From Octopus sinensis (taxonomy: Eukaryota), in NCBI RefSeq assembly GCF_006345805.1, contig NW_021828130.1, forward strand, positions 1 to 9,174: a stretch of DNA of 9,174 nt, written 5' to 3'. Shown here piece after piece: positions 2,303-2,512 of this stretch (position 1 is the first letter of the stretch; each line of letters starts with the position of its first letter). The notes below the pieces were generated by a model. That model saw nothing but the letters and a program-made list of their open reading frames with translations, had not been told where the DNA came from and searched no databases. Made by a program: the position numbers and the translations under genes.

Positions 2303-2512
2303 ATTAAGAGATGAGTCAAACGCAGGTGTTGTTCAAATCATTTATACTTCCAACATGTTTCGAAGAAAGCATTAAGATTATTCTGGAGGTGATTGCATTG
2401 TTTTACATCATGTTTATTCCCTCCGTAATAATCTCAATGCTTTCTTCCAAACATATGTTGGAAGTATAAATATTTTGAATAGCAACATCAGCGTTTGACT
2501 CCATTTCTTAAT
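2303..2512. repeat. About 210-bp imperfect palindrome (fold-back element)
   Basis: Left arm 2303-2389 (attaagagatgagtcaaacgc...tttatacttccaacatgtttcgaagaaagcattaagattatt..ggagg) is the reverse complement of right arm 2420-2512 (cctcc..aataatctcaatgctttcttccaaacatatgttggaagtataaa...gcgtttgactccatttcttaat); spacer of about 30 nt. Confidence 0.93.

Follow-up and report, generated by a model that had tools for sequence, protein, structure and literature searches.

A head-to-head pair of Penelope-like retrotransposon ends forms a palindrome in Octopus sinensis and may stem from priming at two fixed sites

The window analysed here, a 9,174-nucleotide stretch of the Octopus sinensis genome, contains a long palindrome at positions 2303–2512, and the locus raises the question of how such a structure was built. 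A first-pass annotation had described it as a fold-back palindrome derived from half of a hammerhead ribozyme cassette. The fold-back structure was confirmed. Positions 2303–2512 form one long hairpin of 90 base pairs in 12 helices, the longest of 16 bp, and the minimum free energy of −112.6 kcal/mol (calculated for 2280–2540; z = −14.2) was reached by none of 200 shuffles. Contigs of three DNA runs from two studies (X1, X2, and X3) cross the central junction with no other letters, and two of these contigs carry one 1-nt gap. The join at 2528 is crossed by one contig. Since contigs of three DNA runs span the central junction, the palindrome is not an assembly artefact. It is real and originates from a retroelement.

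Dead and one of a kind, the palindrome joins head to head two 5′-truncated 3′ ends of a hammerhead-bearing Penelope-like retrotransposon (PLE) of a family that we call A (Table 1). Family coordinates are counted from the C of CTGACGA as +1. The arms are named short-ended (S) or long-type (L) after two sites at which the arms of related copies end. The S arm contains the 3′ strand of helix II, GAAAC(AT)GTT, and the 3′ strand of helix I, and lacks CUGACGA. Its outer end is the S site of the family and adjoins ATATAT. The two arms are asymmetric, as helix II is complete in the right one, whereas the left one begins at +40. The trinucleotide GAG at 2386–2388 is common to both (family +6..+8 and the complement of +41..+43), and one mismatch sets the tie length in the junction alignment to 0. 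The annotation had treated the left arm as a mirror half. Its GAAACATGTT is indeed present at 2361 on the minus strand, but the arm does not mirror the right one about the helix II loop.

The hammerhead core of the L arm is dead. The arm is devoid of CUGACGA, its GTT lies at 2457–2459, and its GAAAC is mutated to CAAAC at 2448, where most family contigs read G. The absence of CUGAUGA had been noted correctly, as no CTGANGA is present on either strand of 2303–2512. The window copy thus lacks two marks of an active hammerhead, CUGANGA on either strand and the right-arm GAAAC. The L arm does not end at 2512, as annotated, and continues to 2528. It passes the S site (+137) into the family tail and is cut off at +146 with ATGTTATACAA, where it is fused through a common CAA to the restriction-like endonuclease end of a decayed non-LTR retrotransposon. 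The paralogues of this fragment run on into a short 3′ UTR and finish in ATT repeats. The 3′ UTR is missing from the window copy, and we infer that a later deletion removed it together with most of the L tail. From its WDFxIQ..HRKPDIVLVD motif, we take the fragment to be Dong/R4-like. In a check for target-site duplications, the right flank of the window copy was found to be lost, and the flanks of the family are mostly microsatellite.

Table 1 Features of the palindrome and of the related cassette in the window.
Feature	Positions	Strand	Description or basis
Short-ended (S) arm	2301..2389	-	5′-truncated 3′ end of PLE family A, +40..about +137; 87% to natural copy L006
Head-to-head junction	2386..2389	.	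Arm overlap by BLAST, junction alignment, contigs of X1/X2/X3
Long-type (L) arm	2386..2528	+	Family A +6/+10..+146; 88% to L006
Decayed non-LTR endonuclease-end fragment	2526..3250	-	Translation; 7 paralogues
Family B cassette, S arm (-61..+130)	8583..8770	-	Intact hammerhead motif; fold z -3.0
Inverted L-end partner of B cassette, 14 nt (+265..+278)	8773..8786	+	14/14 match to L051 L end

The annotation derived the palindrome from the hammerhead cassette near the right end of the window, which belongs to a second family, B. Aligned to the minus strand of this cassette, the right arm outscores all of 1000 dinucleotide shuffles, whichever of two scoring schemes is used. The left arm is equalled or beaten by 8 of 1000 shuffles under one scheme and by none under the other. 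Identity to the cassette amounts to just 62% (right arm) and 60% (left arm). The natural copy of sister family A (Table 1) fits better, and the cassette is not the parent. A search of the animal's own genome (2.72 Gb) retrieved palindromic and single-arm copies at 76–90% identity. The single-arm copies have CTGACGA or CTGATGA directly upstream of the starting sequence of the window right arm. Exact-motif searches gave 102 matches to a 21-mer of family A and 712 to a 25-mer of family B, and none to the reversed controls. Family B is young, with copies at 97–100% identity in addition to its many exact matches. Its cassette in the window carries CTGATGA at 8710 and GAAACATATGTC at 8649. Monomers have the order CTGAYGA, long helix II, and GAAAC-palindromic loop-GTH. 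In an Rfam scan of the window, the sole matches were miRNA models placed on microsatellites, and the hammerhead models gave none. The folding of family A copies is indistinguishable from that of shuffles (z about 0). Retroelement origin and the link to hammerhead-bearing repeats, both proposed in the annotation, are supported. A non-LTR retrozyme was considered and rejected on account of the head-to-head layout and the lack of a complete hammerhead in 2303–2528; such elements are described as tandem head-to-tail units with a complete hammerhead each (bioRxiv 10.64898/2026.07.22.740005).

The proteins of these families were identified by an HMMER search and a predicted fold. The end of a GIY-YIG-type open reading frame (Y..YIG at the ORF end) is located upstream of the hammerhead in both A and B, and the family A endonuclease fragment matches the C-terminus of protein P0001 (E = 7e-13). 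A reverse transcriptase (RT) fragment of family A (L218) retrieves single-ORF proteins of 720–900 aa with HMMER, one of which led to intact ORFs in this genome. Among the endonuclease and RT fragments and intact ORFs, nothing exceeded the curated Pfam cut-offs. GIY-YIG matched family B fragments weakly (E = 0.01) and 4 of 73 homologues (best E = 2.6e-4), and RVT_1 matched 5 of the 73. PDB sequence searches with these proteins were empty or spurious, and two word-seeded homologue searches gave no matches. The nearest intact ORF to family A is the sister ORF L235 (778 aa; 67–72% to family A DNA), which was itself unmatched by RVT_1. Its predicted structure (pLDDT 88.6) has telomerase as the top PDB match (E = 4e-9), and nine of the ten top matches are TERT, so that the model points to a telomerase-like RT fold. 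The intact ORFs are flanked by direct pLTRs. None of the 13 extended loci or 30 ORF loci contains an intact family A ORF.

The motifs of L235 include IRWL, a variant of RWK, SDKTG, SIYQC..FYIG, CLLC..E, and N..CKH. Its endonuclease lacks CCHH, and its E and N are surrounded by CxxC and CxH. Of 18 own-genome endonuclease matches, 17 are without the CxCX5C linker (the exception is L251), and 22 of 26 homologues have it in a relaxed form. The motif set of the Hydra clade is given in section 11 of PMC8557442, the supplement of which lists an octopus member, Hydra-1_Obim. As described there, the clade shares with our elements RW(K/L), DKT, the lack of CCHH inside GIY-YIG, CxxC/CxH around E/N, a short single ORF, a hammerhead, and (TA)n targets. 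By motifs and by this description, families A and B appear Hydra-like; because the CxCX5C linker is absent, we file them as Hydra-like only. They would differ from the clade, so far as that section describes it, as a sublineage that lacks the linker and still targets (TA)n. The linker-less Hydra-like L235, L242, L243, L250, and L261 and related ORFs are inserted in (TA)n. Such insertion weakens the link between CxCX5C and (TA)n targeting proposed in section 11 of PMC8557442.

The loci used to compare junctions were chosen by exact motif and not by likeness to the palindrome. Family A is represented by 89 loci from the 102 pattern matches and family B by 61 loci from the first approximately 80 listed of the 712 matches. 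Head-to-head arrangements occur at 36 of the 89 family A loci and, among the matches listed, at 36 of the 61 family B loci. The remaining 53 (A) and 25 (B, among the matches listed; three with a tiny partner) have no partner in the examined stretch.

The paralogue breakpoints are spread from −835 to +236. The annotation had proposed that cDNA snapped back in the long helix II, which would centre palindromes on the helix II loop. Junctions with the two breakpoints in helix II number 1 of 36 in family A and 5 of 38 in family B among the matches listed, and an arm spanning the whole hammerhead is kept in 28 of 36 and 27 of 38 (B, among the matches listed). Just 2 of 100 junctions (L126 and L171, at the apical hairpin of helix II) are in the pairing register of helix II, and some pairs are impossible by a single snap-back. 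As a general rule, helix II snap-back is refuted. Several paralogues selected by similarity do have junctions inside helix II, and the polarity of the window copy allows a snap-back, since its long-type arm reaches further 5′. The 3-nt GAG/CTC contact that it would have used is, however, not the pairing of helix II itself, and its breakpoint sum is 50 rather than the 75 or 85 of helix II pairs. We consider snap-back in helix II very improbable.

A MITE, or another palindromic unit moving as a whole, would account for the 11 other near-full-length palindromic matches among 40 scored candidates, but is hardly credible. Family A has 47 junction types, and identical ones are confined to segmental duplications, in which the flanks are shared as well. 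The palindrome has unlike ends (S against L), with no fixed terminal inverted repeats, and the arms of monomers continue into GIY-YIG/RT coding sequence. The annotation was thus right to set the palindrome apart from DNA-transposon MITEs. In family B, two junction pairs recur among the matches listed, at a hotspot at −70..−80, in a comparison of the junctions themselves rather than of their flanks. As the junctions scatter and identical family A junctions recur just in duplicated segments, each insertion builds its palindrome anew, which makes the structure neither a MITE nor a helix II product.

Breakpoint hotspots are located upstream of the hammerhead, at −51..−53 in family A (7/94) and at −70..−86 in family B (29/106 among the matches listed, a set partly biased by selection on a 188-nt query). 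They could mark the RNA 5′ end or the transcription start. Ribozyme cleavage was rejected as the breakpoint source, as 1 of 94 breakpoints in family A and 0 of 106 in family B (among the matches listed) lie within 3 nt of the cut site.

The outer ends of the arms, unlike the scattered inner breakpoints, fall at two fixed internal sites approximately 150 nt apart. In family A, S is located at about +122..137 and L at about +281..290; in family B, among the matches listed, they are at about +125..130 and about +276. In the intact sister copies, the two sites lie in the 5′ UTR, 203 (S) and 51 nt (L) before the ATG, each at a TAT/TATA stretch that merges into a (TA)n-type target. Simple repeats flank 50 of 69 S ends and 49 of 67 L ends, against a background of 12.6%.

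Nearly every pair has one end of each kind. When both families are pooled (B among the matches listed), 52 of the 57 pairs with both ends classed are S+L, five are S+S, and none is L+L (p = 3e-11 if the ends were independent, with the expectation set at its most favourable value, 0.5). Family A contributes 24 S+L and 3 S+S pairs, and family B, among the matches listed, 28 and 2. The unpaired family A arms are divided into 24 S and 26 L. The count leaves aside segmental duplicates (L020, L025, L027, L187, L188, and L192), overlapping stretches, junctions with an arm ending before S (6 A, 6 B), and intermediate ends (3 A, 2 B). It includes the weak pairs L114 and L115, without which 50 of 55 pairs are S+L, and it scores as S+S the locus L166, which is really S with a tiny L and a second piece. 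The window copy (end +146) was selected by similarity and stands outside the 52/57. Full-length ORF copies of three further families fit the rule in 7 of 7 cases with both ends readable, five in one polarity and two in the other. These come from 20 examined loci; no start could be located in 2 of the others, and in 11 one of the ends was rearranged or could not be read. Palindromes have the same length in S+S as in S+L pairs, and selective loss of palindromes therefore does not explain the rarity of S+S. In five full-length copies (L269, L271, L272, L274, and L284), a portion of the 5′ pLTR region is found again close to the 3′ end in inverted orientation, which suggests a flip of the interior between inverted arms, by recombination or as an assembly effect.

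The S arm is the one that reaches further 5′ in 30 of the 52 S+L pairs (A 15/24; B 15/28 among the matches listed). In 10 of 52 (A 3/24; B 7/28 among the matches listed), the L arm starts beyond the end of the S arm and the two do not overlap. The window itself contains a pair of this kind, as the family B cassette and its 14-nt inverted partner, which is followed by (TA)n, form a non-overlapping S+L insertion. Similar short L partners are present in L142 and L193.

Arms of one locus share private variants and resemble each other more than arms of different loci do. Identity is 89.2% within against 85.1% between loci in family A (28/31 above the median) and 98.3% against 95.1% in family B (29/30 above the median, among the matches listed). 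This similarity could also result from shared subfamily age or gene conversion. Among insert-free junctions, microhomology of at least 3 nt is found in 11 of 42 (A) and 17 of 33 (B, among the matches listed), against 5.8% by chance. Inserts are present at 20 of 53 family B junctions among the matches listed, several of them copied from nearby sequence. Near-symmetric junctions, with 5′ ends at most 25 nt apart, are in excess in family A (8/24, p = 0.001) and, among the matches listed, in family B (8/28, p = 0.035). At six junctions per family (B among the matches listed) an arm stops before either site, and some of these are short inverted stubs. Both arms of the full-length copy L272 start at −260.

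An explanation has to provide for two fixed ends, one of each per insertion, in either polarity, with overlap optional and a common source. We think it fairly probable that the palindrome, as a family A pair, arose when the element RNA was primed twice, at two fixed start sites (twin priming). The element protein, probably a dimer, would nick both strands of a microsatellite. One 3′-OH would prime cDNA synthesis at S and the other at L, on opposite target strands, with the same RNA or RNAs from one source as template. Both cDNAs would extend 5′-ward across the hammerhead and halt at variable places, after which their 3′ ends would anneal through 0–11 nt of complementarity and be filled in. Overlapping cDNAs would yield a palindrome, and non-overlapping ones an L1-like 5′ inversion. 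In the window copy, synthesis of the S cDNA would have halted near +40 and that of the L cDNA at about +6..10, narrowly missing CUGACGA, which would explain why no ribozyme survives there. Several observations count against twin priming, namely the near-symmetry excess, the short inverted stubs, the five S+S pairs, L272, the polarity of the window copy, the many partnerless loci, the alternative causes of arm similarity, and the lack of an intact family A ORF.

Self-priming followed by endonuclease resolution, as proposed in PMC3846280 and PMC8557442, would have an L-started cDNA fold back into a hairpin, one strand of which the GIY-YIG nuclease trims at S during integration. It is a broader version of the mechanism suggested in the annotation. 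The near-symmetric junctions point in this direction, as do centres on self-complementary 6–8-mers (L045, L126, L128, and L206), the AT-rich S sites, and the polarity of the window copy. Near-symmetry would also be expected if two cDNAs annealed at self-complementary sites or reached the same RNA end; since the excess is explicable either way, we keep self-priming with trimming and a hybrid of both mechanisms as rivals. An S-started cDNA has no tail, so its fold-back cannot give a tailed partner, nor can a single fold-back make pairs with an S arm that extends further 5′ or with arms that fail to overlap. Self-priming would require that priming take place off the target and that either strand can be cut; to yield non-overlapping pairs, the nuclease would have to cleave a single-stranded loop. 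The S and L ends alike merge into target (TA)n, like priming sites, and both tail boundaries of the PAc element are RT start sites, as described in PMC11167929. We regard self-priming as unlikely. In the hybrid, S and L are both primed on the target, the longer cDNA folds back, and copying switches to the short cDNA. This would explain the one-of-each rule and the near-symmetric junctions together and would suit the templated inserts at family B junctions. It is unnecessary for non-overlapping pairs, which show direct cDNA-to-cDNA joining, and the final sequence cannot separate it from twin priming; we consider it quite improbable. A stem that brings S and L together was rejected, as tail folds are inconsistent (z from +2.0 to −2.1).

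Beyond twin priming at this one locus, the PLE lineage may use two hard-wired sites approximately 150 nt apart on one RNA, one per strand, for nearly every two-ended insertion, a joint claim that we hold as likely to be wrong as right. If it is true, the tail and the inverted pLTR, two hallmarks of PLEs, are products of one mechanism, the element makes both integration junctions by priming, and the genome has been seeded with hundreds of hairpin-forming palindromes. Such palindromes are prone to mis-annotation as MITEs or miRNA hairpins. The annotation also suggested that the palindrome could be a source of siRNAs, an idea with a precedent in Drosophila, where inverted Penelope copies yield them (PMC3681739). 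A run guessed to be RNA yielded 17 family-like contigs, none of them in the class of 99% identity and above.

The window contains further repeats. A hammerhead-like motif at 8197–8270 (plus strand), with CTGAAGA, a long AT-rich hairpin, and GAAACGCGTA, is probably the end of a third PLE family. A compact motif resembling a minimal hammerhead is located at 8917–8960 (plus strand) and consists of ACACG, CTGATGA, a GGGT-CAAT-ACCC hairpin, GAAACTC, and CGTGT. A second hairpin at 1895–2010 (−28 kcal/mol), with CTGATGA at 1907 on the minus strand and GAAACAATTGTA at 1989 on the plus strand, may be another head-to-head PLE remnant. Two families of SINE-like repeats, which we presume to resemble octopus SINEs, occupy 3291–3530 and 3885–4232, and 5000–5160, 6560–6660, 6830–7210, and 7730–7950. 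One of them is tRNA-like and has a 174-nt tandem duplication at 91% identity. ARAGORN found no tRNA gene in the window.

The locus itself is dead repeat DNA, an ordinary PLE insertion. The unusually long tail of its family allows the two ends to be distinguished readily, and a question of mechanism is thereby converted into countable predictions. One S and one L per insertion, in either polarity and with optional overlap, favour two primings over self-priming. With sister ORFs still intact in this genome, the mechanism is open to direct testing in vitro. Neither a one-of-each count nor a twin-priming model for PLEs was found in the openly accessible literature that was searched.

The inverted partner and the one-sided tail are already published. 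The insertion unit of endonuclease-bearing (EN+) PLEs is described as a pLTR with an adjacent inverted 5′-truncated copy and an optional, one-sided tail of 30–40 bp (Craig et al. 2021, PMC8557442; Arkhipova et al. 2013, PMC3846280), and PMC8557442 calls the origin of inverted pLTRs and one-sided tails open. As described in both, canonical EN+ PLEs share with our families head-to-head 5′-truncated copies, a one-ended tail, a hammerhead in the pLTR, and microsatellite targets. Their tail of 30–40 nt contrasts with about 150 nt here (113–152 nt in the full-length families measured). Those descriptions present the tail as optional and invoke self-priming or endonuclease resolution, whereas the one-of-each rule counted here favours two primings.

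The protein of the Poseidon element PAc from Anolis cuts and extends both strands in vitro and is predicted to dimerize, and its reverse transcription begins at two internal positions, which mark the limits of the tail in the genome (Frangieh et al. 2024, PMC11167929). Our families share AT-rich targets with PAc and would share two such sites as well as the cutting and extension of both strands. As reported for PAc, hammerhead cleavage appears unneeded here, where 1 of 200 breakpoints (B among the matches listed) lies within 3 nt of the cut site. The PAc sites fall 111–118 nt into the ORF, with no reported homology between them and the target, whereas ours are in the 5′ UTR at TAT/TATA matching (TA)n. 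The account in PMC11167929, as far as its main findings go, does not link the two sites to inverted insertions.

In L1, the second priming site is variable and the pieces are mostly non-overlapping. Both sites are fixed in the octopus families, and the cDNAs would usually overlap and thereby give palindromes. Twin priming of L1 and its 5′ inversions (Ostertag and Kazazian 2001, as described in PMC10760644) otherwise resemble our proposal in the second priming on the target, the joining of two cDNAs by microhomology, and the inverted 5′ part. Our proposal would thus join the in vitro results for PAc (PMC11167929) to the twin-priming idea for L1 (PMC10760644).
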